Positions 1 through 64,000 of a DNA stretch of 64,000 nt are shown here, piece after piece. Source of the DNA: Amoebophrya sp. A120 (taxonomy: Eukaryota; Protista; Dinoflagellata); assembly GCA_905178155.1 (NCBI GenBank), contig CAJINV010000018.1, forward strand, positions 316,479 to 380,478, read 5' to 3'. The notes beneath the pieces were generated by a model, which saw only the letters and a list, made by a program, of their open reading frames with translations, made no database searches and was not told where the DNA came from. Each line of letters begins with the position of its first letter. Within the stretch, counting starts at the first letter, position 1. The translations under genes were made by a program, and so were the position numbers.

Positions 1-174
1 AGAGTCCAAGTTTTGCTACACGGAAAGAGCATTTATCATGCGGTATAGGCATCAGGAAGCCCTCACAAAATCTGTGATGCTAGGGCCTGCATCACAGACA
101 TTAGGAGGCATGCAAAGAAAATGTGCATTACAAACCTGGCAATCTTCCAAACCCAGACATTTTTACAATTGATA
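1..174. mobile_element. Introner family A (partial)
   Basis: Ends ...CCCAGACATTTTTACAATTGATA. Confidence 0.8.
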
Positions 175-763
175 GTGGGTGTTATGGAAGGAGCCTTCGC
201 GATCGGAATTCCGGAGCATCTGATCCGTTCCGTCGTTATCATTCGTGAAAAGTCCCCACGGTTTTGCTTTTTGATACGCAACGGACTCCACATGTTCTTC
301 GTACTCTTCCTGAATGAACGACTTCTCCCGCTTCACTCCGAGATTCAAATGGTGGTCCGGCACTGCTTCCGCCCCCAAGGACATTCCCAGGTCGTCTCCG
401 AACCCGAGCAGTTTCCGCATCTTAGTTGCGAACCGGAACATCAGCTCGGACTCTGTGTCCTCCGCTTTATGCAATTGCGACAATTCGTGCTCCGAAATCT
501 GCACAGAGAACTGCAGCCAGAGAACTCTGTAGTCCCTCTCCTGCTTCATTTGGTCAAGTTTCTCTCGTTCATCATCATCCATTTGCGACGGACCTTTCGC
601 GATTGATGTCGGAAGATGACTCGGGGCGGCAGAAGATGGGGCATGAGTATCAGCTTGTTGCGCCGCTTTATCAGGGACTGCAGTAGAGCTGCCGAACAAG
701 CTCCCGGACAGACCCGCAAAGACGGAACTAGATTTCGCTCCACTGCTCGCGGAAAGATTTTCA
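175..763 (-). CDS. Exon of giant gene
   Basis: Open frame (ORF 163..699 extended upstream); in frame with the next exon after introner removal. Confidence 0.8.
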
Positions 764-3700
764 TATCAAAAGGAAAAAACCCCCCTCCCCATATCGAAAA
801 GGAAATCTGTGATGCTGGGTGTGCATACACAAATCAGATTTGTCTTGCAGTAGAGGACTGCGCGCAGATTGCCAGCCTAGATAGGGGCCTTTTGGTGTAA
901 GCGCCTCGCATGGTAGACGGCTGTCCTGTAGTCCTTACAACATCACAAATCGCCAGCATAGCGTGGCAGAGAGCCTGGATTTGCCTTCTCGCAAGACAGA
1001 CAAGATTTGTGGCCACAAATCTGCATCACAAATTTTCAGAAGATACGTTTTCAACAATATGGGGAGGGGGGATTTTTCTTTTTGATATTTCAGGTTCTTT
1101 CCTTTTACTTTCGATCTTCAGCAGTTCTGTGTTTCTCAGCTCGGACTTTGCGTTCAACCCCAACTGCCCGTCAGACACCGTCCCGGTTGGGCTTGTCCCT
1201 TTGATACCCCACATTTGCCGGAACTGCTCGTAGACGAAGCTTATCAAATGCAAATATGTCTGGGTCTGGAAGAGTGTAAACTTGTCATGCAGAGGTTCCA
1301 TGATCCATGAGGTCTGGAATGCGGGACTTAGCATGAGAGACTCTGCGAGGTCTCTGCCATGCCTATCCTGCATGAGAAAGTCCCTCCCAACTTGGTCGAA
1401 AGTGGATAGCTTTCGGCACTCATGCAACACAGATTCTTGTATGCTTCAGATTTACCATGACAAGTTACCACCTTCCAGACCCAGACATATTTGCAATTCA
1501 TAAAGCTGAACACCTCGGAGTTCGACTTGAAATCTCTTTCCGGGTCCGCTTTCTCTGATATAACAGTGCACAAATCCCCCTCCCCCTCATTTGTATAGCA
1601 TGAACGGCAGTACAAGCATCAGCAAGACTGCCGGTTTTGCATGACAAATTTCCACTAGATTATACATAGTGCTATTTTGGCCACCAGAACTTGTCATGCC
1701 AACGGTGCCAAGAGGCATAGGGTGGATTTGGTATTTTGCATGACAAATGAGGGGGAGGGGGAGTTGTGCACTCTCATATCTGAGCCTTTTTTCAACGCGG
1801 TCAGACCTTGATCCAGGGTTTCCTCGTAGTCGCGCCGGTCCGGGGACTCCTCCCATTTCAGGTCGGTCAAGGAGACTTATCAAATGTAAAAATGTCTGGG
1901 TCTGGAAGAATGCAAGATTTGTGATGCAGTTTTTCCATGACCCATGAGGCCTGGAATGCAGCACCTAGCATGACAAACGCTGTGAGGTGTCTATCATGCC
2001 TATCCTGCATGAGAAACTCCCTGTGAAACTAATCAAAAGTGGACATCTTTTGGTAATCATGCAACACAAATTTTTCATGCTTCAGATTCAGCATCACAAG
2101 TTGCATTCTTCCAGACCCAGACATTTTTACATTTGATAAGACTTTTAGACTGTTATCCGATAACAGACCGCGCCACCTCTTGTCTTCATCTTCATCCAGG
2201 CCGTCCTCGTCGCCCTCCTCTTTCTCCTTGCTTTCAAAAACGGCAAGCTGGTCACCGCCGGGCCCAGTTGCGTGTGGGCCATATGAAGATTCGACATACA
2301 TCGAGCCCAGGTCCGTGCCGACCACGTTCTGGGCCTCCATCAAATCCATGTACTGGTCGGCCTCCGAATCATCAGAGTCTGACGCGGTGCTGGAACCCGC
2401 ACTGCCGCGTCCATATCTCGCGCCGCCGCCGGTGAAGCTGCTGAAGATGCCGATGCCGTGCGGCTTTCCCTTCGTTTTCTCCAGCTTCCGCGACGTTTTC
2501 TGCCAGAACAGGATCTCAGTTTTGAAGGCTTCTTCGAGGTGTTTTTTCAGCGGATGCCCGCTGCTGGACTCCCCGCTTTGGTACTGGTAGAGCAGATTCG
2601 CCTTGAAGTCCTGGTAAAATTGTTTCACCTGCAGTCGGCGGTCCTCCTCCTCAACCTTCTCCTTTTGGCCGTTCGCGCCGTGCTTCACGGATTTCGGCAG
2701 ATGCTATGAAATGCAAAAATGTCTGGGTCTGGAAACTTGTGATGCAAGTCAGTCAATAACAAATGCACTGTAATGCGCCGCCAAGCATGACAAGTTGCTT
2801 CGTGCTTCTGTGCTGCGTATTCCGCATGAGAAACTGCGTTTTTGCATGACAGGCGAGAGAGGCTGTTTGTGGCCACGCAATACAGATTTAAGGGCCATGC
2901 CAGATCAGCATGACAAACCTCGCAATCTTCCAGACCCAGACATTTTTGCAATTTATAGATGCAAGTCCAGGTCGATTTCCAACGCGAGGTCAAAGACCAT
3001 CGGCTTCAGCACCATTTCTCGGACCACGACGGCTTTATTCAAAGGCTGCTCAAACGGGCCCAAAAACCGCTCCGGGTGCTCACTGGCACTGCCATCCCCG
3101 CTATGACAGTGCACAACTCCCCCTCCCCCTCATTTGTATGGCATGAACAGCATTACAACCACCAGCACACGTAGGGCCTGCGCATGACAAGTTCACGCGC
3201 ATAGTGAAGTACTGTTTGGGCTTCCGGAATTTGTCATGCAAACAGTGCCACAGGGTGGCGCTTGGATTTGGGATTTTGCATCACAAATGAGGGGGAGGGG
3301 GAGTTCTGCACTATCATAACCGGCCGTCGATCGTTTCCACGGATGCGCCGCGTTCTGTGAGAAAAAGATGGGCTGCTTGAACACACTTATCCAGTGCAAA
3401 CATGTCTGGGTCTAGGAACTTGTGATGCAAGGGAGGGAATTATAGGGAGCGCAGGGCAGCGTAATGCGCTTCCAAGCATGACAGGTTTTTCCATTCTGAG
3501 TTGCGTACTCCGCATGAGAAACTGCGTTTTTGCATGACAGGCAAGAGGAGCTCGTCTTTGTGGCCACGCAATACAGAGCTCAGAGTCATGCCAGGCTAGC
3601 ATGTCAAATCTCGCAACCTTCCAGACCCAGACATATTTGCAATGCATAACGCTGTGCCAGCCCGCTTGCTTCCAGTTGCCCTTTCCCGTCGGCTTGAACG

Positions 3701-6700
3701 CGTAGAGCAGCTCCTGCACTTTCCGCAGCGCGCCGGCCCCGGAGGTGAACAAATTGGCGGACTGGAGGTACTTATCCTGTGCAAAAGTATCGCACTCGTA
3801 GTAATCGCAGTCACGCATGACAAATCTTTTTCATAAGGTAAATCCGCATTACAAATTTTCTTTCTCATGCTAAGCAAATTTGTCATGCGATTTATACTAG
3901 TACGCTGCTTGTTTTGCATTTCATAGTACTGGGAGGCACGGTACGTGACCGACTTGGAGAGCTCGGCGTTCTCCGCGTTGCCACTGTTGTTGCCACCAGG
4001 ATCGCCTCCCCCTCCCGAGCCGCTACCACTCGATCCGGGTTGGAATAACCCCGCGGTTTTCATTTTTTCCGCGTCTTTGGGATCCGGAAAGAGTTCCTCC
4101 TTGTCCCGCTTCACCTGGGCATACTTTTCTTTATCCGCTTCGAACTGGGCTTGCGTAATCTCCCCTCTTTCCAACTTGGCCCCGAGCTTATCCGGGTGGA
4201 AGTCTCTGCTGTAGAGGCGGAACGCTCGCCCGATATCCGAGGGCGTGACGTACTGCAGGTGACTCGCTTTCCTCACATATCCTGAGCAAAAACGTCCCCA
4301 CACCAGAGTCAAGATGGGAAACCTGCTAGACAAATCACACAGCTTTGGTTGTTTGGCATGACAAGTTTGCCCTCGTAGTGTGGTCCTGTTTAGCTAGCTC
4401 AGATGCATAGCTTTGCACAGACCTAGCATAGCATGCTGATCCTAGCATCACAAATCCCAAAACACGACTAGAGAATGCTTCTCATGGGGCTCCGTATGAG
4501 AAAGCTTTTTGGCATGCAGAATTGCATGGCAACTCTGGGGTGTGGGGACGTTTTTACACGGGATATCACAAACTGCCGCTTCTTTGGGTCGCCATTGGCA
4601 CCGGGAGGATCGAACGTGACATTCAGATATTTGTCTCCCATTAACGTCTATCAAATGCAAATATTTGTTCATCTGGGTCCGGATGATTACAGGACCACTT
4701 GTCATGCGGGTTTTCTATAGCCAATGAGGTCTGGAATGCAGGCTCTCAATAGCCCATGACAAGATGCTCCTTATCATGCCTCTCCTGCATGAGAAATCCC
4801 TCTCATCAATCTGGTCAAAAGTGCTGGATAGCTTTTGGCAATCATGCAACACAGATTTTTTGCATGGTTCAGATTTACCATGACAAGTTCCAGTGTTCCA
4901 GACCCAGACAACACAGTTGCAATGCATAACGTCAACATTTTCGTCGAGTCATGCGTCTGCTGGTCCATGGCGCCCCACCACGGGACAAAAGTGTCGGAGC
5001 CATATCCTGTGTAAAAACGTCCCCACCCCATAGTCAAGTTGGGAACTTAGCAACACAAATCCAGAAGTTTTGGGAGCCACGCATGACAAGTTCGTCTTTG
5101 TAGTGTAGTGCAGGTTAGCAAGGACAGTCGCATCACAAACCCATCTCCTCATCCTGTTTGCAGCATTACAAATGCCAAAACACGATTGGAAATGCCTCTC
5201 ATGTAGATGCGCATTACAAATGTTCCTGTCATTGCAAATCTGCATGACAACTCTGGGGTGGGGACGTTTTCGCTCAGGATAAACCAAACGTCTGACTCAT
5301 CGGCTTTTGCATTGGCGTTTCGTTTCGCCTGCGGCTCGCTTCCGAGGCGTTATTGTCTCTCGGAACACATTCGACCCCAGCGATCTGGCCCGGGCCCTTC
5401 GGGGCGGTGAGCGATTCGTTCGCGAGGAGGGTGGTGCATTGGGAGACCTGTAGTTGACAATTTTGTGGCGTTGGAGATGTTGTTGGAGATAGAATACAAT
5501 TCTCTACTTCTCTGCTGCATGCGAATAATTTACTAACTTATTCGCGAAGCTGCATTGTACCTAATTTTTTGTCATCATGCCAGTTGTACTGCTGCGCTCT
5601 CTTGATCTTGAAACGGTGTATTTGCTCAAACTGCTCTTCAAACAAGAGAATCCGTTAATATCGATTTATATCAAATGTAAAAGTGTCAGTGTCTGGGTCT
5701 GGATCTGGAAGAGTCTTGCTGTTTTTGCATGACACACAAGGCCTGGAATGGAAGCTCTAGCATCACAGGTCTCGAGAAGCTTCCGCAATGCCGAATCCGC
5801 ATGACAAATCTGCCACTTTGGTGACAGAAAGTGAGCAGCTTTTGCTACCTATGCATGAGAGATTTTTCTGTGTTCTGAAATGCGCATCACAAGTTTGTCT
5901 TCTTCCAGACCCAGACATATTTGCAATGCATAATTTACACAATACTCTTTTCTACCTTCTCCACATATTCTCTTTCCCGCTTATTCAGTTCCGGCAGGCC
6001 GAACCCGAGATCTTTTTCCATGTCCTCCGGCGCGGTTTCCGTTACCAGCCTATCAAAATGAAAAGTCCCCCCTTCCCATATCAAAACGGAAATCTGTGAT
6101 GCGGGATGTGTGTACGCAAATCACATTTGTCTTGCAGGAAAGCACTGCACGCAAATGGCAAGCCTAAGGGGGGGCCTTTTGGTGTAGGGGCCTAGCATGG
6201 CAGACGTCTGCCCTGTAGGCCTTGCAGCATTACAAACCGCCTGCATATCGGGGCCGACTCTCTGGAGTTGCCTTCTGTCAAGACAGACAGAATTCGTGGC
6301 CACAAATCTGCATCACAAATTTTCGGAAGGACATGTTTTCAGTATAGGGAGGGGGGATTTTTCCTTGCAATACAGCCGCATGTCCTGCTCGACATCTAAA
6401 TTCAATTCCGCAGCCACTTCCAAGTGCACTTCCAACTGCAACTGCACCTCCGCGTCCGCATCTTCCGTGCCCGACTTCTGCTCCCCAGAGCTAGCTGCCA
6501 CCACCGTGCTCGGCAGAGCACGGAAGGACTCAGTGGCGTAGATCGATGCGCGCTTCACCACTTGCTCCAGCGCTTTTTGCAACGAGTTTCTCAACTCCAG
6601 GGGGATCATCGTGGTGAATCGCCAATTCACTTCCTTCATGATCCGAAAAGCGAATCGGTCGATCATCAAAACCGGGTCAATCCGGTCCTGCACCTGCGCC

Positions 6701-57700: not shown

Positions 57701-60700
57701 TGTGGATTTATTTTTGCATTTACAAATAAGTATATGCCCTGCTAGTAGCTTTTTTCTCTGGGATATCGATCGCCGGGTGCTCCTGCCAGTTCCGCGGCGG
57801 CAATCCTGTGACGTCTTTTTTCCGAGAGTCTTCCCAGATCGCGCCAGAAACGACGTCGAAGAAGATGTACTTCCCGGCCGTGAACTGCACAGAGAGCAAG
57901 GGTTCCCGCATGCCGAGAGACTTAAACGAATGTTCCCTTGTGATGTCCGCCTTGTTGATTTGCTGCATCGCGTATCAAATGCAAGTATGTCTGGCTCTGG
58001 AACAGTGTAAACTTGTCATGCAGGTTTTCCATGACCCATGAGGTCTGAAATGCGGGACCGAGCATGACAGACTCTGTGAAGTTTTTGTCATGCCTATCCT
58101 GCATGAGAAACTCCATCCCAACTTGGTTGACGTGCGCAGCTTTTGGCACTCACGCAACACAGATTTTTGCATGATCCGGATTTAGCATGACAACTTGCAA
58201 TCTTCCAGACCCAGACATATTTGCAATCCATATCGCGCTCGCCAAATTCTCCAGGTCAAAGACCTTCGCATATCAACGGGAAAAATCCCCCCTCCCTATA
58301 TCGAAACGAAATTTCTGATGCTGGATTTGCGTACACAAATCCGATTTGTCTTGCAGTAGGGCAGCGCCGCCAGATCTTCGGCCCAGGTAGGGGCGTTTGG
58401 GTCTAGTTCTTGCTTAGCATTACAAACTACGGCGGTCCCCTAGGCGCAACAGCATGCCAAAGCGCTTCCATAATGGCGCGGAAGCCTGTGCACTCGTCTT
58501 CTTGCAAGACAGACGTGATTCGTGGTCTCAAATCAGCAACACAAATTTTTGGAAACATACCTCTTCGATATGGGGAGGGGGGATTTTTCCTTACAATATC
58601 GCAATCAAAATCAGACCCCGCAGGATGCCCTTTTTGTTGTCCTTTAATGCCTCCTATCAAATGCAAAAGTGTCTGGGTCTGGAAGGTTGCAAAGTTCTCA
58701 TGCATATTTTCCATGCCCCATGAGGTTTGGAATGCAGGACCCAGCATGTTGACAGGTTCTGCGACGTCTCTATTTATAGCCTATTCTGCATGACAAAGAC
58801 AAACTGCCTCTAAACTTGTTCAAAAGTGGACAGCTTTTGGTAGTAACGCAACACAAATTTTTGTACGATCCAGACTTCTTAGCATGACAAGTTCGCGTCC
58901 TCCCAGACCCAGACATATTTGCAATGCATACCTCCGCATCCAGATTTTCCTGCCTGCGTCGCGGAGATAATTGCGAACGCGGCGTTAGCGATTCGAGATG
59001 GTTTTCCGGGTAGTGTACCTGTTCCGTCATGACGCAGTGGTGCCGACCAGCCATGCTTTGCAGATATTTGGATATTTCTACTTCTTTGCATTCGTCATCA
59101 TTCAAATCGTTCGAGGCCCTCAGCTGGCCATTCACCCAATCGGCGCGGCAGCAAGCGCCGCGCTGCCGCTGGGCCGTTCCGTGGTCATCGCACGCGCCGC
59201 AAAACCCGGCCGCCCAGCCATCGGTGTGCATGCACGGGCCCTGGTTGTGCCCGAATTGCCAGCAGTCCTCGGACTGGGCGAGAGTTGTCTGCGGAGTTCT
59301 TTGCTTCGTCAAGTCCCGGGTCCGCTCCTGAATCGTCCGTCGGAGTTTTTCCTTGCCCTTCAAAACATCCGCGTCAAACTGAAAATCCGTATCGGGCGTC
59401 GGCTCGGTGTCTTCATCTTCCTTCCCCGAGAAGAACAAGTTGATCGTCGCAGACAACAGCATCGCCACCTCCACTCCGTCCTTCGCGACCATGACATCAC
59501 CGTTGCTTCCACCTTCTTTAATTCGCTTCCGAATCAAGTTTTGCTCCCGGTCGGTCTTCAGGGTCTTGTCAACAGAAGTTCCATCATCCGCACGGAAGAT
59601 CATTTCATATCCTGTGCAAAAGTATCGCATTCGTATAATAAATGCGAGTCTTGCATTATAAAGCTTTTTCTGAACGCTGATCCGCATTACAAATTTGATT
59701 TCTCATGCTGAGGAAATTTGTAATGCATTTATACGAATACTTTTGCAGTTCATATTTCAGCCCCCGTTTCGATGATGGTGCTCGTGCTGTACAGCGAAAT
59801 CCCCGTCTCCTATCAAAAGAAAAAAGTTCGTAACGATCACTCATGGGCATTTTTGCAATACAAAATTGTCTGTCATGCGCAAAAATGCATCACAGCCACA
59901 CTTCATAAGGGATTTCCCTAGTGTTTCTGCAATAGTACAAGGAGAAGTTGTGATGCTAAAAAAATTTGTAATGCAGAACCTGCATCAACTTAGTGACTGT
60001 GACAAACTTTCTTCTCTCCATATCTCCGCTAATTTTTGCACCAGAAAGCTGATCCTGGTCAGCCTTTCTTGCGTCTTTGGCGCGGACCCGCAGGTATGGA
60101 TTGCAAATATGTCTGGGTCCTCTGGCTGCAACTTGTAATGCTAAAAGTGAATCATGGTAGACGCACTGCAATACGCATCTATGCATGACAAAAATTTTTT
60201 TGGCTCCCATGTCTTACGTATTTCGCATGGCAAACTGCGTTTTTGCATGACAGGCAAGAAGGCCTTTTCGTGCCTATGCAACACAGATTTTCGAGTCATG
60301 CCAGACAAGCATGACAAACTTGCACTCTTCCAGACCCAGACATTTTTGCACAGGATACCCGGCCTCCCGTCGCAACTGCTGAACCTTCGGAATCCCGACG
60401 ATCAGCCATATAACCCGCTCAGGTGTTACAATCTCAAATCGGTTACCATAGAATATGGCAATCTGTGATGCAAGAGTGCATGATCTAGCCAACTCCCATA
60501 GGATTGCGCATGACAAGCTCCGGAGTGGTCCCAAACCGCACTACAATCCGGCGAAATTTGTATTGCGGAAAGTGGACGACTGCTGGCCGAATCTGTCATG
60601 CTCATCATGCAATACAAAATCCAGATTCTATTGTAACGTTTGAGGTTGTAACGTCTGAGCGGGTCATAAGCCAGTCCACAAGTTTTTGCATGCCCTTCAA

Positions 60701-63700
60701 TTTCAACCACTCCAGCAACTGCAGGAGCTTTTTCCGCGACTCGATGCACGTCTCGCGTCTATCCCGGCAGTAGGTGTCCCATTTGTGTAGAATCTGGTGC
60801 TTTTCCTTCAAGGCGGACCGCTGCGCCGGGGTGTGTTTCGGGTTCGACATGGCTTCTTCCTCGCTTTCCAAGTCCTTGTCACGGTGGAACTATCAACGTG
60901 AAAAAAGCCCCCTCCCCATATTGAAACGGAAATTTCTGTTGCGGGATTGGCGTTTACAAATCCGCGCTGTATTGCAGCAAGCGCTTGCAGGCATTTCCTA
61001 AGCCCGATTTGGTATGCAAAAGGCTAGCACTCAGGTATGACAGACAGCTTTGCAGTAGGCAAAAGAGCATTACAGCTTGGCTGTGGAATGCGCCAGACGG
61101 TTCCCATTTGCTTCATATGCAAGACAGAGCTGATTTGTGGTCGCAAATCAGCATCACAAATTTCCATTGTGAGTATGTTTAGGGGGCGGGATTTTCCCTG
61201 CAATAGGAACTCCGCAATGGTCAAGACCCGGTAGAAGTCGACCATCTTGTGCGTCAACCGGAGTAGCACCCGCAACCGGTGTATGGTGAGCAAAAACGTC
61301 CCCATCCTAGAGTCAAGATGGGAAATCTGCTAGACAAATCACCAGTCTTTGCTGGCTGTTGCGCATGACAAATTTGGGCGAGCAATTTAATCGTGTTCAG
61401 CTAGTGCAACCGCATCACAGATCTAGCATACCATTCTGATTCTAGCATTACAAATCTCGAAACACCAGTGGAAACTGCTTCTCATGGGTCTCCGCATGAG
61501 AAACATTTTGAGCATGCAGATTTGCATTACAACTCTGGGGGCGGACGTTTTTACAAATGATACGGTGCAGCTGAATCTCTACCATTTCCTGCTTCTCGTC
61601 TAACCGCTGCAGTTTTGTGTCGTTCAAAGCGTCCTCCGCCTGGAAAAAGACATCTTGCTCCACGTCCGGACCCCCCGTGGCAGTCGCTCCACTGCCGGCG
61701 CCCTGATCCGACGTGTGCAACTGCCGTTCCAGCTCCAGCCCCTCCCTGGCTATGTATCCAATAGAAAAACATTGTAGGTCTAGGTGTAACTTTTTTGATT
61801 TTGGAGGAACAGCATTACAAATTTGTCTGGCATGACAGCAAAAACCTGTCATGCGCACATAGTACGTGAAAACGGCCTTTAATGGATCCTACGATGCATC
61901 CGTAGCATGACAGACGCAATCATCTTGCATGTTGCGCATCACAAATTTACACTAACAACGTTTTTCTCTTGGACACTATGTCCACGAAGAACACAATGGG
62001 GTTCTGCTTGCTGGACTCCGGAAGTTTTTTCCACAAGTCCTCGTTCTCCCTACTCGGCAGGTCTTGCGTCAAATCGAGCCAGTGTTCCTCGTGTTTGCTG
62101 GGTTCGTGTTGTGCAAACAACTGGTCGAATTGCGTCTTCGCTGCGATTATGCATTGCAAATATGTCTGGGTCTGGAAGATTGCGAGACTTCTCATGCTAG
62201 TTTGACATGACTCAGAACTTTGTATTGCGTGGCCACGAAGACCTCCTCGTGTCTGTCATGCAAAAACGATGTTTCAGTTTCTCATGCGGAATACGCAACA
62301 CAGAGCCACAAGAAAATCTGTCATGCTTGGCGGTGCATTACAGTGCGCTTTCTGTTCACTGACATGCATCACAAGTTTCCAGACCCAGACATATTTGCAC
62401 TTGATAGCGATAATGGAGATGGAATCAGTCTCCTGCAGCAAATATCCTGTGCAAAAGTATCGTACTCGTATAAATGCAAGTCTTGCATTACAAATCTTTT
62501 TCTTAAGGTAAATCAGCATGACTAATTTTATTTCTCATGCTAAGGAAATTTGTAATGCATTTATACGAGTACGATACTTTTGCAATGCATAGCAAATGCT
62601 CCGTCAAAATCGTGACGAAATGCCGGCCGCCATTCAGGTCCATCTGCTGGAGCAGCGCGTAGGGGTCCTGTAACGCGGTCTGGAAGAGCAACCGCAAATG
62701 GAACTTCGAGCTCCACCAGTGCGGGAAGCGATCGAAGGAAGAGAGCAACGTGTCAAACTGCAGCTGGTGCTTCACGCGCATGCTCCACGCCTGGTACTCA
62801 TTCGTCTTCCAACATTATGCACTGCAAAAGCATCGCACTCGTAGTAATCGCAGTCACGCATTACAAATCTAATAATCAAGGGAAATCCGCATTACAAATT
62901 ACATTCCTCATGCTGAGAAAATTAGTCATGCGATTCATACTAGTATGATGCTTCTGCAATGCATAAGCGTTTTTCCTCCGCCATGTGAGGTGCGGATTCC
63001 ATGATGTTCAAAACGGCCGACATCTCCTGACTCAAGGGCAGCCCGACATCGCTGCCGCGCAGATCGTCGCTGCTGTAGCGGGCAATTTCCGGCTGGCGCA
63101 ATCGTTTCAAGACAAAGTCCTTTTGGAGGTGCGTTTTGCCCAGATACCCTTTCACCTGAAACTTGCTGACATCCGCGAGAGATTCCCGCCAGACCCCCCG
63201 CCCGGAGGCCGAGATGGCGGACAGCTGCAAGAATTTCAGCAATTTATCCCTTAATCGGTCTTTCACCGCCACCGTTTTCTCTTCCTCCGTTGCCTTATTT
63301 CCCGAATTATTATCCGCAGTAGTTCTCGTGACATGCAAAAGCAAGTGCTTCTCTCGCAAGAATTGCTTTTGCGTCGCCAAACTGTCACCGAACGGAATGC
63401 TCAGCGGCTCCAACTGCAGGTAAAACGGGCCGTTGCTGGTCGGGAGGAGCGGTTTATTTGCGGTGAAACCGGTGCTGGCGCCGAGTAGTGAGCTGCCTTG
63501 CGTGAGTCCCGCGTACTTCGCCACGAGGCTAGGTCTCTTGTCCGGCGAAAAATCGTTCTGTATGCGCTCTGGCAAACCATCCGCATTCGCTGTAAACGAC
63601 TTCGGGCCCGCGAGCGGGTCATTTGCCTCGTTTTCCTTGCCGACGCGTTGCGGCAGCTCGGCATCGAAATCCTGGCCCAGTTCTACGTGCCGTTTCGTGA

Positions 63701-64000
63701 AGCCCACAATCTGCCCCTTCTCGTGCGACACGTAGGCGTTGAATTCCACATCCTGTATCGCAAGAAAAACGTGTTACAGTTACACATTGTGATGTTGCAG
63801 GCCAAGCAAGACAGACAAGCTCTGTCATGCCGGATATGCATAGGGGGCTCGTTATTTCATAGGTGTTTTCCCGTAGGATTTCGGCATTACAAGTTTTCTC
63901 ACTCATGCAGAGAAATTTGTGTTGCTGGATTCACTACAAATGTGTAACTGTAACAGTTTTTTCGTTGGATATCCTGGTACGCGATCTTATCCGCCCGTAG
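175..64000 (-). CDS. Giant multi-exon gene (about 115 exons, partial at both window ends); DUF3638/DUF3645-like P-loop NTPase protein with J-domain-like segment
   Basis: Segments between introners join in frame after removing element plus one 5-bp DR, e.g. DNSLKV|SLTDLKWEE...TALKKG|SEKADPERDFKSNSEVFS|FVYEQ...KRKEPE|NLSASSG across 764-2138. Motifs: YDPLVYPELILF..WPVQ (~31400), MGQGKT (~23060), DEGDNILHSRKQLNYPLG (~20870), AIPYKAADQP (~17110), FHPDK (~4195). Confidence 0.8.
764..1087. mobile_element. Introner family B (TIR TATCAAAAGGAAAAATCCCCCTCCCCATAT)
   Basis: DR tttca/tttca; frame restored. Confidence 0.9.
1242..1502. mobile_element. Introner family A (TIR TATCAAATGCAAAAATGTCTGGGTCTGGAA)
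   Basis: DR aagct/aagct; frame restored. Confidence 0.9.
1559..1778. mobile_element. Introner family C (TIR TATGAGAGTGCACAACTCCCCCTCCCCCTCATTTG)
   Basis: DR tctga/tctga; frame restored. Confidence 0.9.
1878..2138. mobile_element. Introner family A
   Basis: DR agact/agact; frame restored. Confidence 0.9.
2139..2704 (-). CDS. Exon of giant gene (acidic/low-complexity)
   Basis: ORF 2029..2688 core, bounded by introners. Confidence 0.8.
2705..2957. mobile_element. Introner family A
   Basis: DR gatgc/gatgc. Confidence 0.88.
3102..3318. mobile_element. Introner family C
   Basis: DR cccgc/accgg (imperfect); frame restored. Confidence 0.82.
3388..3648. mobile_element. Introner family A
   Basis: DR acact/acgct. 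Confidence 0.85.
3773..3925. mobile_element. Introner family D (TIR TATCCTGTGCAAAAGTATCGCACTCGTA)
   Basis: DR gtact/gtact. Confidence 0.88.
3926..4277 (-). CDS. Exon encoding DnaJ/J-domain-like segment
   Basis: SDIGRAFRLYSRDFHPDKL has the HPD motif after a basic helix. Confidence 0.7.
4278..4565. mobile_element. Introner family E (TIR TATCCTGAGTAAAAACGTCCCCACCCCAGAG)
   Basis: DR tcaca/tcaca. Confidence 0.88.
4649..4928. mobile_element. Introner family A (diverged)
   Basis: DR acgtc/acgtc. Confidence 0.85.
5003..5281. mobile_element. Introner family E
   Basis: DR agcca/aacca. Confidence 0.85.
5448..5955 (-). other. Probable canonical GT-AG intron containing an introner
   Basis: AAG|GTAGAA donor and CTACAG|GTC acceptor, both phase 0; AT-rich interior; skips an in-frame TAA. 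Confidence 0.55.
5669..5932. mobile_element. Introner family A (inside probable canonical intron)
   Basis: DR attta/attta. Confidence 0.88.
6051..6372. mobile_element. Introner family B
   Basis: DR cagcc/cagcc. Confidence 0.88.
6373..6777 (-). CDS. Exon of giant gene
   Basis: ORF 6313..6783 core between two family B introners. Confidence 0.8.
6778..7088. mobile_element. Introner family B
   Basis: DR gcgaa/gcgaa. Confidence 0.88.
7386..7647. mobile_element. Introner family A
   Basis: DR gcagt/tcggt (imperfect). Confidence 0.82.
7725..7948. mobile_element. Introner family C
   Basis: DR tgcag/tgcaa. Confidence 0.85.
7993..8315. mobile_element. Introner family B
   Basis: DR ccaca/ccaca. Confidence 0.88.
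8381..8528. mobile_element. Introner family D
   Basis: DR tgaag/tgaag. Confidence 0.88.
8762..9023. mobile_element. Introner family A
   Basis: DR gctcg/gctcg. Confidence 0.88.
9102..9517. mobile_element. Introner family A hosting a nested family D copy
   Basis: DR gggct/gggct; frame restored. Confidence 0.88.
9153..9301. mobile_element. Introner family D (nested)
   Basis: DR cgtga/cgtga. Confidence 0.9.
9518..9868 (-). CDS. Exon of giant gene
   Basis: ORF 9473..9868; joins KTLEEP|SRWTTFPEF across the nested introner. Confidence 0.8.
9869..10077. mobile_element. Introner family F (TIR TATGCAAGAAAAAAACT.TGT.AGTGTAA)
   Basis: DR tgcac/tgcac. Confidence 0.88.
10193..10426. mobile_element. 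Introner family G (TIR TATGGCGTTCTCAAATGTTACATTCTCA)
   Basis: DR tttcg/tttcc. Confidence 0.85.
10673..10817. mobile_element. Introner family D
   Basis: DR acatc/acatc. Confidence 0.88.
10863..11118. mobile_element. Introner family A
   Basis: DR tctct/tctct; inner part of right TIR deleted. Confidence 0.85.
11119..11617 (-). CDS. Exon of giant gene
   Basis: ORF 10910..11722 core. Confidence 0.8.
11618..11789. mobile_element. Introner family H (TIR TATCCCAGAGAAAAAAGCTGGCAGGGCATA)
   Basis: DR tcgta/tcgta; left end CAT. Confidence 0.85.
11790..12973 (-). CDS. Large exon of giant gene
   Basis: ORF 11753..12985 core, about 394 codons. Confidence 0.85.
12974..13122. mobile_element. Introner family D
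   Basis: DR acgac/acgaa. Confidence 0.85.
13167..13430. mobile_element. Introner family A
   Basis: DR tgatg/tgatg. Confidence 0.88.
13587..13849. mobile_element. Introner family A
   Basis: DR catag/cgtag. Confidence 0.85.
13930..14195. mobile_element. Introner family A
   Basis: DR acacg/aaacg. Confidence 0.85.
14480..14762. mobile_element. Introner family A (diverged)
   Basis: DR ggtac/cgtac. Confidence 0.82.
14811..15046. mobile_element. Introner family G
   Basis: DR cggga/cggga. Confidence 0.88.
15160..15481. mobile_element. Introner family B
   Basis: DR caaat/caaat. Confidence 0.88.
15719..15955. mobile_element. Introner family G
   Basis: DR ttttc/ttttc; opposite orientation to 14811 copy. 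Confidence 0.88.
16080..16343. mobile_element. Introner family A
   Basis: DR gtcat/gtcat. Confidence 0.88.
16415..16567. mobile_element. Introner family D
   Basis: DR tcttt/tcttt. Confidence 0.88.
16610..16875. mobile_element. Introner family A
   Basis: DR agcat/agcat. Confidence 0.88.
16876..17246 (-). CDS. Exon with DUF3645-like motif
   Basis: GKDAGWSIEDESLEAAIPYKAADQP resembles the AVPxxAKDxP motif; recognised by eye, no HMM run. Confidence 0.65.
17247..17490. mobile_element. Introner family A
   Basis: DR cgctt/cgctt. Confidence 0.88.
17714..18020. mobile_element. Introner family I (TIR TATTACAATGAAAAATGCCCCC)
   Basis: DR gtcag/gtcag. Confidence 0.88.
18056..18343. mobile_element. Introner family E
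   Basis: DR agagt/agatt. Confidence 0.85.
18396..18566. mobile_element. Introner family D (diverged)
   Basis: DR degenerate caccc/gatcg; frame still fits removal of 5 extra nt. Confidence 0.75.
18752..19019. mobile_element. Introner family A
   Basis: DR cctct/cctct. Confidence 0.88.
19087..19371. mobile_element. Introner family E
   Basis: DR cccga/tccga. Confidence 0.85.
19593..19801. mobile_element. Introner family J (TIR TATCGCAAGAAAAAACTGTTTCACTGTAA)
   Basis: DR aaatt/aaatt; left end TGT. Confidence 0.85.
19865..20131. mobile_element. Introner family A
   Basis: DR cagcg/cagcg. Confidence 0.88.
20488..20644. mobile_element. Introner family D
   Basis: DR tctgc/tctgc. Confidence 0.88.
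20645..21235 (-). CDS. Exon with Walker B-like motif
   Basis: HTVMIGDEGDNILHSRKQLNYPLG, DUF3638-like. Confidence 0.75.
21236..21568. mobile_element. Introner family B
   Basis: DR gaagt/gaagt; left end TCT. Confidence 0.85.
21658..21922. mobile_element. Introner family A
   Basis: DR attcg/attcg. Confidence 0.88.
21992..22141. mobile_element. Introner family D
   Basis: DR tcgga/tcgga. Confidence 0.88.
22194..22482. mobile_element. Introner family E
   Basis: DR ttcga/ttcga. Confidence 0.88.
22483..23190 (-). CDS. Exon with Walker A-like motif
   Basis: AAQVAMGQGKTSVMTPLL, DUF3638-like MGxGKT. Confidence 0.8.
23191..23459. mobile_element. Introner family A
   Basis: DR ctcgc/ctcgc. Confidence 0.88.
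23581..23844. mobile_element. Introner family A
   Basis: DR gatct/aacct (imperfect). Confidence 0.82.
23915..24176. mobile_element. Introner family A
   Basis: DR tccag/tccag. Confidence 0.88.
24177..24654 (-). CDS. Exon of giant gene
   Basis: ORF 24139..24807 core. Confidence 0.8.
24655..24906. mobile_element. Introner family A
   Basis: DR tgcag/tgcag; left end CAT. Confidence 0.85.
24907..25657 (-). CDS. Exon of giant gene
   Basis: ORF 24771..25586 core. Confidence 0.8.
25658..25942. mobile_element. Introner family E
   Basis: DR gagtc/gcgtt (imperfect). Confidence 0.82.
25943..26402 (-). CDS. Exon following canonical AG acceptor
   Basis: DKQR|YKRALEQIAG...VIFGTRLR is in frame with the exon ending at 27996. 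Confidence 0.75.
26403..27995 (-). other. Canonical GT-AG intron containing 141-bp satellite
   Basis: CAGAG|GTAGTA donor and TTATCAG|GTAC acceptor; frame preserved. Confidence 0.75.
26450..27935. repeat. Tandem repeat, 141-bp unit, about 10.5 copies
   Basis: GAGAACGTTCTC recurs at 26579, 26720, 26861, 27002 and onward; central copies near-identical, edge copies diverged. Confidence 0.95.
27996..28504 (-). CDS. Exon ending at canonical GT donor
   Basis: ORF 27992..28747 core; its TAG lies inside the GTAG donor. Confidence 0.75.
28505..28783. mobile_element. Introner family E
   Basis: DR ctcgg/ctcgg. Confidence 0.88.
28817..29086. mobile_element. Introner family A
   Basis: DR gctgc/gctgc. 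Confidence 0.88.
29228..29449. mobile_element. Introner family C
   Basis: DR cccgg/tccgg. Confidence 0.85.
29514..29792. mobile_element. Introner family E
   Basis: DR atttc/gtttc. Confidence 0.85.
29793..30237 (-). CDS. Exon of giant gene
   Basis: ORF 29785..30393 core. Confidence 0.8.
30238..30486. mobile_element. Introner family A (distinct interior)
   Basis: DR tggat/tggat. Confidence 0.88.
30543..30823. mobile_element. Introner family E
   Basis: DR acatc/acatc. Confidence 0.88.
30824..32017 (-). CDS. Large exon; contains DUF3638 N-terminal-like YDPLVYPELILF...WPVQ
   Basis: ORF 30715..32025 core, about 398 codons. Confidence 0.85.
32018..32227. mobile_element. Introner family J
   Basis: DR gtaag/ggaag. 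Confidence 0.85.
32309..32571. mobile_element. Introner family A
   Basis: DR attgc/agtgt (imperfect); frame restored. Confidence 0.82.
32615..32902. mobile_element. Introner family E
   Basis: DR gggct/gagcg (imperfect, synonymous). Confidence 0.82.
32991..33246. mobile_element. Introner family A
   Basis: DR tgcac/tgcac. Confidence 0.88.
33341..33549. mobile_element. Introner family F
   Basis: DR gtcgt/atcgt. Confidence 0.85.
33639..33910. mobile_element. Introner family A
   Basis: DR cagct/cagct. Confidence 0.88.
33943..34222. mobile_element. Introner family E
   Basis: DR gacga/gacga. Confidence 0.88.
34271..34415. mobile_element. Introner family D
   Basis: DR aactc/aactc. Confidence 0.88.
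34446..34730. mobile_element. Introner family A (old, diverged)
   Basis: DR caatc/aaatc. Confidence 0.8.
34818..35147. mobile_element. Introner family B
   Basis: DR gtttt/gtttt. Confidence 0.88.
35201..35469. mobile_element. Introner family A
   Basis: DR gagtc/tagtc. Confidence 0.85.
35528..35676. mobile_element. Introner family D
   Basis: DR ctgca/ctgca. Confidence 0.88.
35703..35912. mobile_element. Introner family F
   Basis: DR ccaac/ccaac. Confidence 0.88.
35981..36294. mobile_element. Introner family B
   Basis: DR cgggg/tgggg. Confidence 0.85.
36630..36891. mobile_element. Introner family A
   Basis: DR tgctg/tgctg. Confidence 0.88.
37133..37402. mobile_element. Introner family A
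   Basis: DR tcttc/tcttc. Confidence 0.88.
37403..38002 (-). CDS. Exon of giant gene (PK-rich linker)
   Basis: ORF 37336..37995 core. Confidence 0.8.
38003..38225. mobile_element. Introner family F
   Basis: DR aggat/aagat. Confidence 0.85.
38345..38571. mobile_element. Introner family C
   Basis: DR tgggc/tgggc. Confidence 0.88.
38615..38882. mobile_element. Introner family A
   Basis: DR ccgac/ccgac. Confidence 0.88.
38883..39851 (-). CDS. Large exon of giant gene
   Basis: ORF 38714..39898 core. Confidence 0.85.
39852..40117. mobile_element. Introner family A (diverged)
   Basis: DR tcaca/tcgca. Confidence 0.83.
40166..40711. mobile_element. Introner family D expanded by internal insertion
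   Basis: DR gcgga/gcgga; frame restored (WHFR|FSRPM). Confidence 0.85.
40213..40498. mobile_element. Unclassified ~290-bp insertion inside a family D introner
   Basis: Flanked by 9-bp direct repeat GCAATTCTT (40204-40212, 40499-40507). Confidence 0.5.
40712..41042 (-). CDS. Exon downstream of the LTR-containing intron
   Basis: KKFPGV|FGFLPRAC joins in frame with exon 48334-48391. Confidence 0.8.
41218..41574 (-). repeat. 3' LTR
   Basis: About 6 mismatches to 47834-48190 by eye. Confidence 0.95.
41575..41587 (-). other. Polypurine tract (GGAGACGGGGGAA)
   Basis: Directly precedes the 3' LTR on the minus strand. Confidence 0.8.
42216..44945 (-). CDS. pol: Copia-type reverse transcriptase plus RNase H
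   Basis: KARWVVRGFQD, DIETAFL, LYGLIDAPERW, FVDDLL, FSDSSF, NIADELT. Confidence 0.92.
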   Translation of the reverse strand, partial: YSEVDRAWLGTKIIGLEEGHAGRPIYLLYGKSTGYHVRKSGSQLRVIPSLEFSAHPIYQHYARQQAAKALPNSSAVPKEGAPHSVAKAKSVSHAQVLNPHAHANLQSESQSIHFSKNASISSSSNSPNVADQHASTTTTSTTSTKNLSVPQGAEAPKAKAQAPPKAKAKAPPQAPESPPATSEEEEDEEPDPRTLRAERRRREREARWAHAFLAAESGGDISFSLDESQKDLLSRLTKERYEHHSGHRVIVDKGQEVFQFFAAQTSREIALMKINKNCYTVKSDLNWKKRYDVFHFVLTKDGFFSRKKHGDKVSGYDFVFSLACLRRVDLPSVTLSLKPEEIKSGNVEVSYNFLIDHGLQPEAFKALNKETGSIKDNDVYELPQGNVDQSRVMESRIVWTLKIDTIKGTLKRVKARWVVRGFQDPRKGSEDIRTDSSMISEAGLKTFLVFSKQHGLDIGSGDIETAFLRGFYFDPNDKPLYITVPAAVRKCKIIEAPVIRLKKCLYGLIDAPERWQAALFKRLKELCAWSVTADQNLLYFVVDQNSNLIPPPRPVYTESTAAQIQSDPTFRHEPPQGGRIIGTMCVFVDDLLYSGGELFKKLVLAPLEETFSFGSKEDLTFSNPVNYVGQKLALNTDHSFRLSQEHYTSKIVEIPIPHGVDVESCEPFTVKNKDGKCPYRALIGNLRWATRSRPDIACPLSILSSVMEHPTWSDVHKLNKVARTVAHRLDFSTNFFELQGPLQLVSFSDSSFKGRPDGESQTGFVIFLSEMTPGPSRRAIPMRWQSIKQARRSSSPAGSELLALRGAHADAKYLQGMLVEVGILDASTPILCLTDSTDNVSTAGTTHKMKRETNLMSDAAMLRQEQKEKLIDVRHIPREINIADELTHMSSYPRMIIKAFATGRIQVSA
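44946..45908 (-). CDS. pol: Retrotransposon integrase (rve) segment
   Basis: WMALD...ADPGRQF...ENGICER DDE core; same frame as flanking ORFs, bounded by single TAA codons. Confidence 0.85.
   Translation of the reverse strand, partial: GSGARILESLYKKYLSSTGKPDTPQRQDKFATSFAILESKGFPDKDSSGIVSWRILSDVEALAMARMIATTMARTRYAPRRPRAATFVSTKVGEWMALDIYYYSQSVFLGAPKENEMLHAIDLHSRYSRGHKPPSKNVKTADVITFLKELKEKGFLPRNLMADPGRQFISTELRDFCKQEGVSLHLLPSEEHWENGICERSHKVFREVTFRLRRLGNTRNGTELLKKVINAVNLQSSSVLPDKISPFEAEFCRTPSNVRTFLDQQTEQIPEKSSFLEEFRERLQIRQMLEQVAVDKEFLKRLEVRRKPKEDELIPGAAVE
45909..47468 (-). CDS. gag: Retrotransposon Gag plus aspartic protease
   Basis: 519 aa; GKGK-rich basic region; AVDTGCASSLVG protease motif. 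Confidence 0.85.
   Translation of the reverse strand: MFNPFDSGAEYPPPPHPTGHHAAGPSPMAGETQPITPEEFRETMRRLGQLTQMIEPIARHLLGQANTAGTTPPQPGNAMPNMQAPATASPPLSRWDYQKAAPKLQELGQFNAYSRDLVGYLSNLRKYGIEESLGLPQIKQAISLQAVHTHLATPTVAESLTYDTMLEQIREALFGDLQMHLFSEVCRLVERNSDTGDLVTARARFQQSAQALAHLPREEFLGLLYLRSFGLTQLQTGQILGASASYAFKDIDKQVVKCLASFAGREESATAAAGKGKQRWYGNYANYRGLTYGASSSSSGAHHGKPSGKNNSKAKGKTYTPYRPGPGKGKGGKSRFGWKGKSSRYAAGAVGEDDEYENDYPYEEWDGEYDHNDDYDYYPEEEQEQPKEEQETEKVSAAFLSFESPQSMAVDTGCASSLVGQETLDASKLAYDLQEACPVKFAFADGNNSTSTQKAACFVFGASRTFRVVQGATPFLLGCSDLEAVDVVNKTCKLKNCKTPMQLQKEKGILVVKGDQTCV
47821..47833 (-). other. Primer binding site (TGGTAGCGGATTT), probably initiator tRNA-Met
   Basis: TGG directly after the 5' LTR; TGGTAGCG matches the start of the Ty1-type tRNAiMet PBS. 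Confidence 0.75.
47834..48190 (-). repeat. 5' LTR
   Basis: Direct repeat of 41218-41574. Confidence 0.95.
48392..48643. mobile_element. Introner family A
   Basis: DR acctc/accca (imperfect). Confidence 0.82.
48734..49046. mobile_element. Introner family E (diverged)
   Basis: DR acccg/actcg. Confidence 0.82.
49111..49373. mobile_element. Introner family E
   Basis: DR degenerate tcttg/tccat; frame fits (AAME|KLEAV). Confidence 0.8.
49516..49672. mobile_element. Introner family D
   Basis: DR tttgc/tttgc. Confidence 0.88.
49739..49955. mobile_element. Introner family K (TIR TATCGCGAGAAAAAAGTGTTACAGTTAC)
   Basis: DR tggaa/tggaa. Confidence 0.88.
50029..50338. mobile_element. Introner family I
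   Basis: DR ctcac/ctcac. Confidence 0.88.
50505..50827. mobile_element. Introner family B
   Basis: DR gcaaa/gcaaa. Confidence 0.88.
50919..51197. mobile_element. Introner family E
   Basis: DR tcatc/tcatc. Confidence 0.88.
51264..51556. mobile_element. Introner family I
   Basis: DR tgccc/tgccc. Confidence 0.88.
51750..52002. mobile_element. Introner family A
   Basis: DR tttta/ttctg (imperfect). Confidence 0.8.
52049..52201. mobile_element. Introner family D
   Basis: DR aaact/aaact. Confidence 0.88.
52264..52552. mobile_element. Introner family E
   Basis: DR cgcgt/cgcgt. Confidence 0.88.
52614..52875. mobile_element. Introner family A
   Basis: DR aggcg/aggcg. Confidence 0.88.
52876..53986 (-). 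CDS. Large exon of giant gene
   Basis: ORF 52661..54130 core; RLFDT|MKLKQF joins across 53987-55972. Confidence 0.85.
54190..54625. repeat. About 96-bp hairpin-forming minisatellite (4 good copies plus degenerate ones)
   Basis: CCTAGGTCATGGCGCGGGGACAGAGTCCCCGCGCTGACCTAGG near 54264, 54359, 54456, 54564. Confidence 0.9.
55490..55775. repeat. G-rich (GGGGTGTGTCT/G)n 11-bp minisatellite
   Basis: Two tracts, each followed by CCACTTTGCATACCCCAGAACA. Confidence 0.9.
56029..56263. mobile_element. Introner family A
   Basis: DR ttctg/ttctg. Confidence 0.88.
56333..56551. mobile_element. Introner family C
   Basis: DR tcttc/tcttc. Confidence 0.88.
56590..56854. mobile_element. Introner family A
   Basis: DR gcttc/gcttc. 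Confidence 0.88.
57161..57305. mobile_element. Introner family D
   Basis: DR ctgca/ctgca. Confidence 0.88.
57582..57765. mobile_element. Introner family H
   Basis: DR ccgat/tcgat. Confidence 0.85.
57973..58232. mobile_element. Introner family A
   Basis: DR tcgcg/tcgcg. Confidence 0.88.
58271..58598. mobile_element. Introner family B
   Basis: DR tcgca/tcgca. Confidence 0.88.
58655..58930. mobile_element. Introner family A
   Basis: DR cctcc/cctcc. Confidence 0.88.
58931..59607 (-). CDS. Exon of giant gene with Cys-rich patch
   Basis: ORF 58770..59687 core (CWQF..CMH..FCGACD..GACCR). Confidence 0.8.
59608..59754. mobile_element. Introner family D
   Basis: DR tttca/tttca. Confidence 0.88.
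59811..60022. mobile_element. Introner family M (singleton, weak TIR)
   Basis: TAT...ATA ends; DR tctcc/tctcc; internal GCAT(C/T)ACA motifs. Confidence 0.8.
60095..60357. mobile_element. Introner family A
   Basis: DR gcagg/cccgg (imperfect); right tip of D/E type (GCACAGGATA). Confidence 0.8.
60409..60668. mobile_element. Introner family L (TIR TATAACCCGCTCAGGTGTTACAA; singleton)
   Basis: DR agcca/agcca. Confidence 0.85.
60891..61205. mobile_element. Introner family B (diverged)
   Basis: DR ggaac/ggaac. Confidence 0.85.
61282..61562. mobile_element. Introner family E
   Basis: DR cggtg/cggtg. Confidence 0.88.
61755..61975. mobile_element. Introner family F
   Basis: DR ctatg/ctatg; right end ACA. 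Confidence 0.85.
62148..62406. mobile_element. Introner family A
   Basis: DR gcgat/gcgat. Confidence 0.88.
62443..62591. mobile_element. Introner family D
   Basis: DR gcaaa/gcaaa. Confidence 0.88.
62816..62965. mobile_element. Introner family D
   Basis: DR aacat/agcgt (imperfect). Confidence 0.82.
62966..63755 (-). CDS. Exon of giant gene
   Basis: ORF 62940..63749 core. Confidence 0.8.
63756..63971. mobile_element. Introner family K
   Basis: DR tcctg/tcctg. Confidence 0.88.

Follow-up and report, generated by a model that had tools for sequence, protein, structure and literature searches.

The window (the whole stretch of DNA analysed, 64,000 nt) carries part of a giant minus-strand gene interrupted by introner elements, together with two introns of GT-AG type and several nested insertions (Table 1). 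Following removal of 114 elements and both GT-AG introns, the gene model comprised 7,885 codons in the window with no stops. The 23.7 kb of coding sequence carries 114 elements (4.8 per kb), with the shortest exons measuring 21 nt, and the gene is an extreme case of element load. A Pfam search of 36 exon stretches returned DUF3638 as the sole match above the cut-off on a credible stretch; matches on a tandem repeat, described below, were disregarded, with no stretch passing. The product is a putative DUF3638-family protein, to which the family name assigns no function.

A search with the DUF3638 exon confined to longer proteins (411-2000 aa) retained none of 4272 candidates, but an exhaustive protein search with one DUF3638 exon recovered 25 proteins. 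The top two were from Amoebophrya AT5.2, with 62% and 58% over the matched stretch, while the fifth, a more distant one, was from A120; these matches place the host, at genus level only, in Amoebophrya. The spliced product is collinear with the AT5.2 protein P0001 (4,840 aa) in ten HSPs running from window position 40750 to 394, and these HSPs flank the break at 26-28 kb on either side. Altogether, 38 of the 114 junctions fall within HSPs to P0001 or to a second AT5.2 protein, P0002. For the first 1,900 codons (64000-48334), the sole links to the rest are a frame that stays open across a 7.3-kb element and a single weak match (E 0.08). A preliminary description of this DNA had proposed one giant minus-strand gene, and the uninterrupted frame and the collinearity with one AT5.2 protein bear this out.

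Table 1 Coordinates of the gene, elements, introns, inserts and informative joints in the window
Feature	Position	Strand	Details
Giant protein-coding gene, DUF3638-family	176..64000	-	Open at both window ends
DUF3638 (PF12340) exon matches	20646..23184	-	E 6e-10 (above cut-off), 6.8e-06 (below cut-off)
115 complete TAT...ATA introner elements with 5-bp target-site duplications	764..63971	both orientations	Scan and homology
Elements 1-9 of 115	764-1087, 1242-1502, 1559-1778, 1878-2138, 2705-2957, 3102-3318, 3388-3648, 3773-3925, 4278-4565
Elements 10-18 of 115	4649-4928, 5003-5281, 5669-5932, 6051-6372, 6778-7088, 7386-7647, 7725-7948, 7993-8315, 8381-8528
Elements 19-25 of 115	8762-9023, 9102-9517, 9869-10077, 10193-10426, 10673-10817, 10863-11118, 11618-11789		90 more follow, the last at 63756-63971
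Partial element	1..174	.	Clipped by window edge
Element nested in element 9102-9517	9153..9301	.	Own 5-bp duplication
Canonical GT-AG intron	5448..5955	-	508 nt; contains element 5669-5932; joint 5445-5954 in X3 and X4 contigs
Predicted GT-AG intron	26403..27995	-	1,593 nt; donor AG|GTAGTA, acceptor TTATCAG|G; homologs align both sides
Copia-type LTR retrotransposon in element 41043-48333	41218..48190	-	LTRs 357 bp, GGATG duplication
GC-rich insert in element 53987-55972	54043..55858	.	1.8 kb; internal tandem repeats
Joint, 3/5 repeat (CCCGC/ACCGG)	3097..3323	-	Skips element + 5 nt; c=1-4
Joint, 4/5 repeat	3383..3653	-	c=0-2
Joint, 4/5 repeat	4998..5286	-	c=0-1; upper bound of register
Joint, 3/5 repeat	7381..7652	-	c=1-2
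Joint, 4/5 repeat	7720..7953	-	c=0-4

A scan for terminal inverted repeats (TIRs) flanked by direct repeats identified 95 TAT..ATA elements; BLAST homology added 22 and two were removed, one nested and one mis-bounded. The window thus holds 115 complete elements, in addition to one nested and one partial copy, matching the earlier count of about 115. In the coding part the list is not biased by the search for TAT, because no insertion was left in frame. The 111 simple elements measure 145-333 bp (median 262), and the other four contain nested inserts. BLAST clustering gave 11 families at 50% coverage or 16 at 70% coverage, making the earlier figure of about 13 a fair one. Both orientations occur in most families (for example 23/9, 10/9 and 8/8) and within a single spliced contig. 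Watson-Crick pairing of the TIRs is 0.97-0.98 at positions 1-3, 0.43-0.73 at positions 4-8 and 0.72-0.97 at positions 9-28, and when folded, 92 of 112 elements formed eight or more of the first 15 TIR pairs. TAT lies at the coding 5' end in 111 of 115, and A occupies element positions 11-13 in 102, 106 and 106 of 115. With TIRs, a target-site duplication of fixed length, no coding capacity and insertion in both orientations, the elements appear MITE-like in structure. A scan of the whole window at Rfam gathering thresholds gave no matches.

The flanking 5-bp direct repeats are of variable sequence, as first described, with 104 distinct left 5-mers among the 115. They are perfect in 82 elements, match at 4/5 bases in 21, at 3/5 in 10 and at 2/5 in 2 (at least 4/5 in 103 of 115), compared with a mean of 0.93 and a maximum of 5 perfect pairs in 2000 shuffles. 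No clear consensus was found in the exon flanks of 114 junctions, and the targets are unbiased; a preference for G at -1 (45/114, p 0.04) was one of 40 tests and hence was discounted. The TAT...ATA ends reported previously hold as the general form, except that 8 of 115 elements carry one altered base (those beginning at 7993, 8762, 11618, 19593, 21236, 24655, 34818 and 61755). All eight have perfect repeats and keep U at +2, and damaged ends were seen in none of the 33 elements with degenerate repeats (p 0.10). Base changes affect 8 of 690 positions in the TAT/ATA ends versus 47 of 1150 in the repeats (Fisher p 2e-4), and this slower decay of the ends is consistent with selection on them after insertion.

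The outer nine bases of the elements are drawn from a small pool (TATCAAATG 37 times, TATGCATTG 23, TATCCTGAG 15, among others), which is freely mixed across families and across both ends; the two terminal 9-mers agree in only 15 of 115 elements. This mixing hints at end exchange among copies. Separately, 424 copies of the motif GCAT[GCT]A[CG]A were counted across 28.6 kb of elements and none across 26 kb of exon. All 116 elements, in every family, contain one to six copies, inverted near the two ends, and five more lie in the Copia element (47558-47787). The motif is unlikely to be a branch site, given its absence from the non-element sequence of both GT-AG introns and its poor fit to U2 under the pairing rule for that snRNA; it is likely a site for the transposase or a host protein. 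The passages of the introner papers compared here do not mention it.

Nested inserts were found within four elements. The LTRs of the Copia-type element are identical at 351 of 357 positions, and its sequence matches RVT_2 (E 1e-12) and rve (E 1e-05, below the cut-off). The element is young, and together with its host element 41043-48333 it forms a predicted 7.3-kb intron. Its gag, integrase and RT share one frame, interrupted by two single TAA codons (45909 and 44946). Such nesting of a Copia element in an introner could offer a simple origin for 'family 38', the Copia-like A120 family with flanking TIRs listed in PMC12130899. For the insert at 54043-55858, there was no Rfam match and no clear terminal repeats. 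Element 40166-40711 contains an insert of about 290 bp with an apparent 9-bp duplication (40213-40596), followed by the single N of the window and then a duplicated stretch; the N and the duplicated stretch are likely an assembly join. The outer element at 9102-9517 is missing, judged by spacing, from the transcript-like contig X3-9 described below.

The reading frame was used to determine how much sequence leaves with each element. When each element plus k nt was deleted, the best minus-strand frame contained 32-37 stops at k = 2, 5 and 8, versus 175-199 at the other values of k from 0 to 7. The stops left at k = 5 were confined to two places, the intron 5448-5955 and the region 26.4-28.0 kb. 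Retaining any single element destroyed the frame in 113 of 114 cases, and all 33 elements with degenerate repeats, including the two at 2/5, preserved it when the element and 5 nt were removed. Removal of the element with one repeat copy therefore opens the frame, as had been proposed, once the two GT-AG introns are also taken out. Elements are not the only introns of the gene: GT-AG introns, one of them predicted, account for both places, and element 5669-5932 sits within one of them. The region at 26.4-28.0 kb includes a 141-bp (47-codon) tandem repeat in about ten copies (26477-27904), open in two minus-strand frames; two shorter introns with this repeat as an exon would also keep the frame. 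A GT/GC-AG pair is available in any equivalent register at 4 of 115 elements, in agreement with the earlier remark that many repeats offer none, and judged by their borders the elements are not canonical U2 (GT/GC-AG) introns.

Of eleven sequencing runs listed, X1, X3, X4 and X9 were compared with positions 175-19900, and two of these four were re-examined over 2958-7992. Runs X3 and X4 consist of assembled contigs from one sample, distinct from that of X1, which we presume, by guess, to be RNA; their library method is not on record. Contig X3-9 (7,955 nt) extends 2.8 kb beyond the left window edge, and over 175-11612, a stretch with 24 consecutive elements, the offset between its six listed pieces and the spliced model never changes. 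Within 2958-7992, all ten element joints listed from X3 and X4 skip the element length plus 5, and an eleventh joint corresponds to the GT-AG intron. Because the GT-AG intron is also absent, these contigs behave as spliced RNA and not as element-free DNA. Thus the proposed removal of elements from transcripts with exactly 5 extra nt, at borders other than GT-AG, is seen at ten of ten joints in likely-RNA contigs of one sample. Run X1 behaves as DNA: at a depth of about 30, exon-element borders are crossed unbroken in five of eight listed pieces with no differences, and, at 90% likeness, 68,917 X1 contigs matched within 19.7 kb, tens of thousands of them drawn by element sequence, as befits families with many genomic copies. 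From run X9, which bears the same species label and consists of raw RNA reads, 161 reads matched in part, 159 of these with 90-95% likeness; all lay on elements and none covered an exon. At 10863-10949, the X9 reads reveal a related element (90-95% alike) kept in an abundant transcript of another locus.

Since perfect repeats conceal the cut and degenerate ones expose it, the five joints at degenerate repeats are informative of its position. We define c as the number of bases retained from the plus-strand left repeat copy. The only value common to all five joints is c=1; five random registers would share one with a probability of 0.19, and all would be compatible with c=1 with a probability of 0.03. 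Statistically modest in themselves, the joints point to one register, in which the intron on the coding strand is N-TAT...ATA-NNNN, with one nucleotide removed ahead of the stem and four beyond it; taken with the codon, stop and homolog tests that follow, this register has moderate support. At position 1 of degenerate repeats, codon usage sides with the left copy in 12 of 14 cases, and at position 3 with the right copy in 7 of 9; position 2 is uninformative, the left copy being favoured in 6 of 9, opposite to c=1. Positions 4 and 5 are split, and because of stop codons there neither c=4 nor c=5 can apply to every element. Homolog alignments were usable at just 3 of 30 non-synonymous sites, of which two speak for c>=1 and one against c<=4. 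At 14480 the c>=1 residue (R) is that of both AT5.2 homologs, and at 29514 it is weakly matched by one homolog; at 12974 P0001 has the left-copy residue V, needing c=5, whereas the contig end at 12968 implies c<=4.

At c=1, U is found at +2 in 115 of 115 elements, A at +3 in 114 and A at -7 in 115, with no constraint at +1 or from -4 to -1; an acceptor AG is present in 13 of 115, G at +1 in 22 and a GT/GC-AG pair in 2. Table S4 of PMC7789003 gives T as the second base in all nine top non-canonical motifs of A120 and in all nine of A25. This is as c=1 predicts, but aligner bias and strand errors (CT-AC is listed) may contribute. The same paper describes splice sites as variable relative to the hairpin, which counts against a fixed register. 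Literature searches for a published register led to PMC7789003 and reviews, and in the parts compared none fixes it; Fig. 3 and S19-S25 of PMC7789003, or subscription papers, may show the T at +2.

The element class itself is already described: its signature has been published, as have genes that contain tens of these introns. The comparison literature comprised passages of PMC7789003, PMC12130899, PMC11282704, PMC11453091, PMC12621601 and PMC11170887. Farhat et al. 2021 (PMC7789003) define the inverted repeat of A120 introners as TAT, seven variable bases and at least three A, with direct repeats of 3-5 nt and 29,850 copies of about 240 nt. The elements studied here share the TAT/seven variable/AAA pattern, border repeats, families, borders without GT-AG and, from likely-RNA contigs, transcript support. 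PMC12130899 likewise lists tens per gene, with lengths near 150, 210-225, 250-260, 280, 305 and 320-350 bp, as found here (21 of 58 A120 rows). There is no difference in kind; where the passages of PMC7789003 give variable splice positions and an unknown border, this locus points to one 1+4 register, and where the 2025 table of PMC12130899 gives inconsistent target-site duplication lengths (2-5) and splice-site origins, it points to a uniform 5-bp duplication. The element density of 4.8 per kb (114 in one part of a gene) is above the genome mean of 1.4 introns per kb. Since 99.98% of AT5 introns are GT-AG (PMC7789003), the elements represent lineage-specific insertions. The passages of that paper report no cognate autonomous transposase in A120.

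Related systems share parts of this anatomy. The MITE-derived introners of Micromonas, Aureococcus and Polarella are likewise non-autonomous TIR elements in which target duplication leads to silent insertion (PMC7789003 and reviews), but they carry or co-opt GT/GC/GA-AG sites, which only 4 of 115 elements here could do. The nonconventional introns of euglenids and the noncanonical introns of hemistasiid diplonemids share non-GT-AG borders, paired ends offset unequally from the cut and repeats resembling target-site duplications (PMC11282704, PMC12621601). In that unrelated lineage, CAG lies at +4..6 and CTG at -8..-6, with offsets of 3 and 5, whereas here TAT lies at +2..4 and ATA at -7..-5, with offsets of 1 and 4; circular products were demonstrated there. 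The non-canonical introns of Fritillaria borealis share a MITE origin, TIRs and target-site duplications and are removed by an altered U2 spliceosome (PMC13326754), but they prefer AG-AC/AG-AT ends and a TAC target, in contrast to the unbiased targets observed here.

Taken together, we consider it reasonably probable that these are Amoebophrya A120-type introners with 5-bp duplications, likely cut at a fixed offset (1 nt before TAT, 4 after ATA) by a likely modified U2-type spliceosome. In this mechanism, a cut-and-paste transposase would create the 5-bp target-site duplication. As 1+4 = 5 nt would exit with the element, the exon would be restored exactly at any target and in either orientation, and such exact restoration by new insertions would explain the load of elements in this coding sequence. 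Because the 1+4 nt would leave with the element, later changes in these five intronic bases would be free, so that the element ends would be read and not the repeat. In the least certain step, the TIR stem would bring the ends together, substituting for site choice by U1 and U2AF, while TAT would supply a donor-like N-UAU and distance would set the acceptor. The often unpaired TIR positions 4-8 count against stem-guided reading, and on the coding strand G-U pairs are not in excess over A-C pairs (58 vs 65, first 15 pairs), giving no sign of selection for RNA-level wobble pairing. PMC7789003 reports U2, U4, U5 and U6 and 83 of 89 spliceosome proteins in A120, with U1 snRNA not detected. A U2-type spliceosome is favoured because U+2/A+3 resembles a donor, the transcript also loses GT-AG introns, and A120 has this set of snRNAs and proteins, U1 snRNA aside. 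It would need to drop the +1 and -1 rules, given the scarcity of acceptor AG and G+1.

The same elements and register could instead be handled by a structure-reading endonuclease that cleaves one nucleotide ahead of the terminal stem and four beyond it, with a ligase joining the exons, by analogy with euglenids. We regard this as possible but unlikely. It would explain why neither the exons nor positions +1, -2 and -1 demand a particular base, why orientation is immaterial and why the geometry is bound to the stem, and it suits the undetected U1 snRNA; euglenid nonconventional introns, moreover, leave as full-length circles without lariats (PMC11282704). It leaves unaccounted for the invariant U+2 and near-invariant A+3, donor-like in both A120 and A25 types, as well as the near-complete spliceosome and the removal of GT-AG introns from the same transcript, and the imperfect stem positions 4-8 speak against it too. 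We know of no candidate enzyme. Likewise unlikely is the broader proposal that a second, non-spliceosomal RNA machine removes most introns of the parasite's genes. Such a machine would ignore junction bases, measure 1 nt and 4 nt from the TAT/ATA-closed stem and cancel the 5-bp duplication exactly, even around a 7-kb retrotransposon; the elements would be self-licensing, more than 110 times per transcript.

The preliminary description held that the machinery reads the duplicated target. If the direct repeat guided removal, its copies would align and the cut could fall anywhere within them, in keeping with the 82 perfect repeats and with the perfect repeats of all eight elements with damaged ends, against 0 of 33 among degenerate ones. 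However, the elements at 3102-3318 and 7386-7647, with 3/5 repeats, are removed as exactly as those with perfect repeats, the two 2/5 repeats preserve the frame like the other degenerate copies (33 of 115 in all), the repeats decay faster than the TAT ends, and a single register suits all five informative joints. Repeat identity is dispensable for removal, a fixed offset from the element ends fits the data better than cutting through the repeat, and we consider guidance by the repeat very unlikely.

Removal at the DNA level, in the manner of the internal eliminated sequences of ciliates, or an element-free strain, with X3 and X4 being DNA, would fit the separate sample of these runs and their presumed RNA nature, but is highly improbable. 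The same contigs also lack the GT-AG intron and, in the pieces listed, are identical to the window; at single-copy depth, X1 contigs run across the borders without a break (although contigs drop rare variants), and no element-free form with introns retained was found in the runs compared. Reverse-transcriptase template switching at a hairpin and direct repeat is a recognised artefact, and the anatomy of stem and repeat favours such jumps in libraries whose method is unrecorded, but it is scarcely credible here, as one retained element breaks the frame in nearly every case, collinearity of the product with an AT5.2 protein extends over 38 junctions, 24 elements are absent from one contig without error and 3/5 repeats are joined precisely.

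The removal of non-GT-AG introns in Amoebophrya was left as an open question in the original description (PMC7789003), in line with the preliminary description of this locus, and borders were reported there as variable, the true cut being masked by the direct repeats. The new contributions of this work are a testable cut rule and the dispensability of repeat identity. If the 1+4 register holds genome-wide, the apparent lack of a splicing signature would become one rule, N-UAU...AUA-NNNN, and tens of thousands of annotated borders would be corrected. Silent insertion in either orientation would then be explained, and experimenters would know exactly where a lariat branch, a circle junction or cyclic-phosphate ends should be sought.
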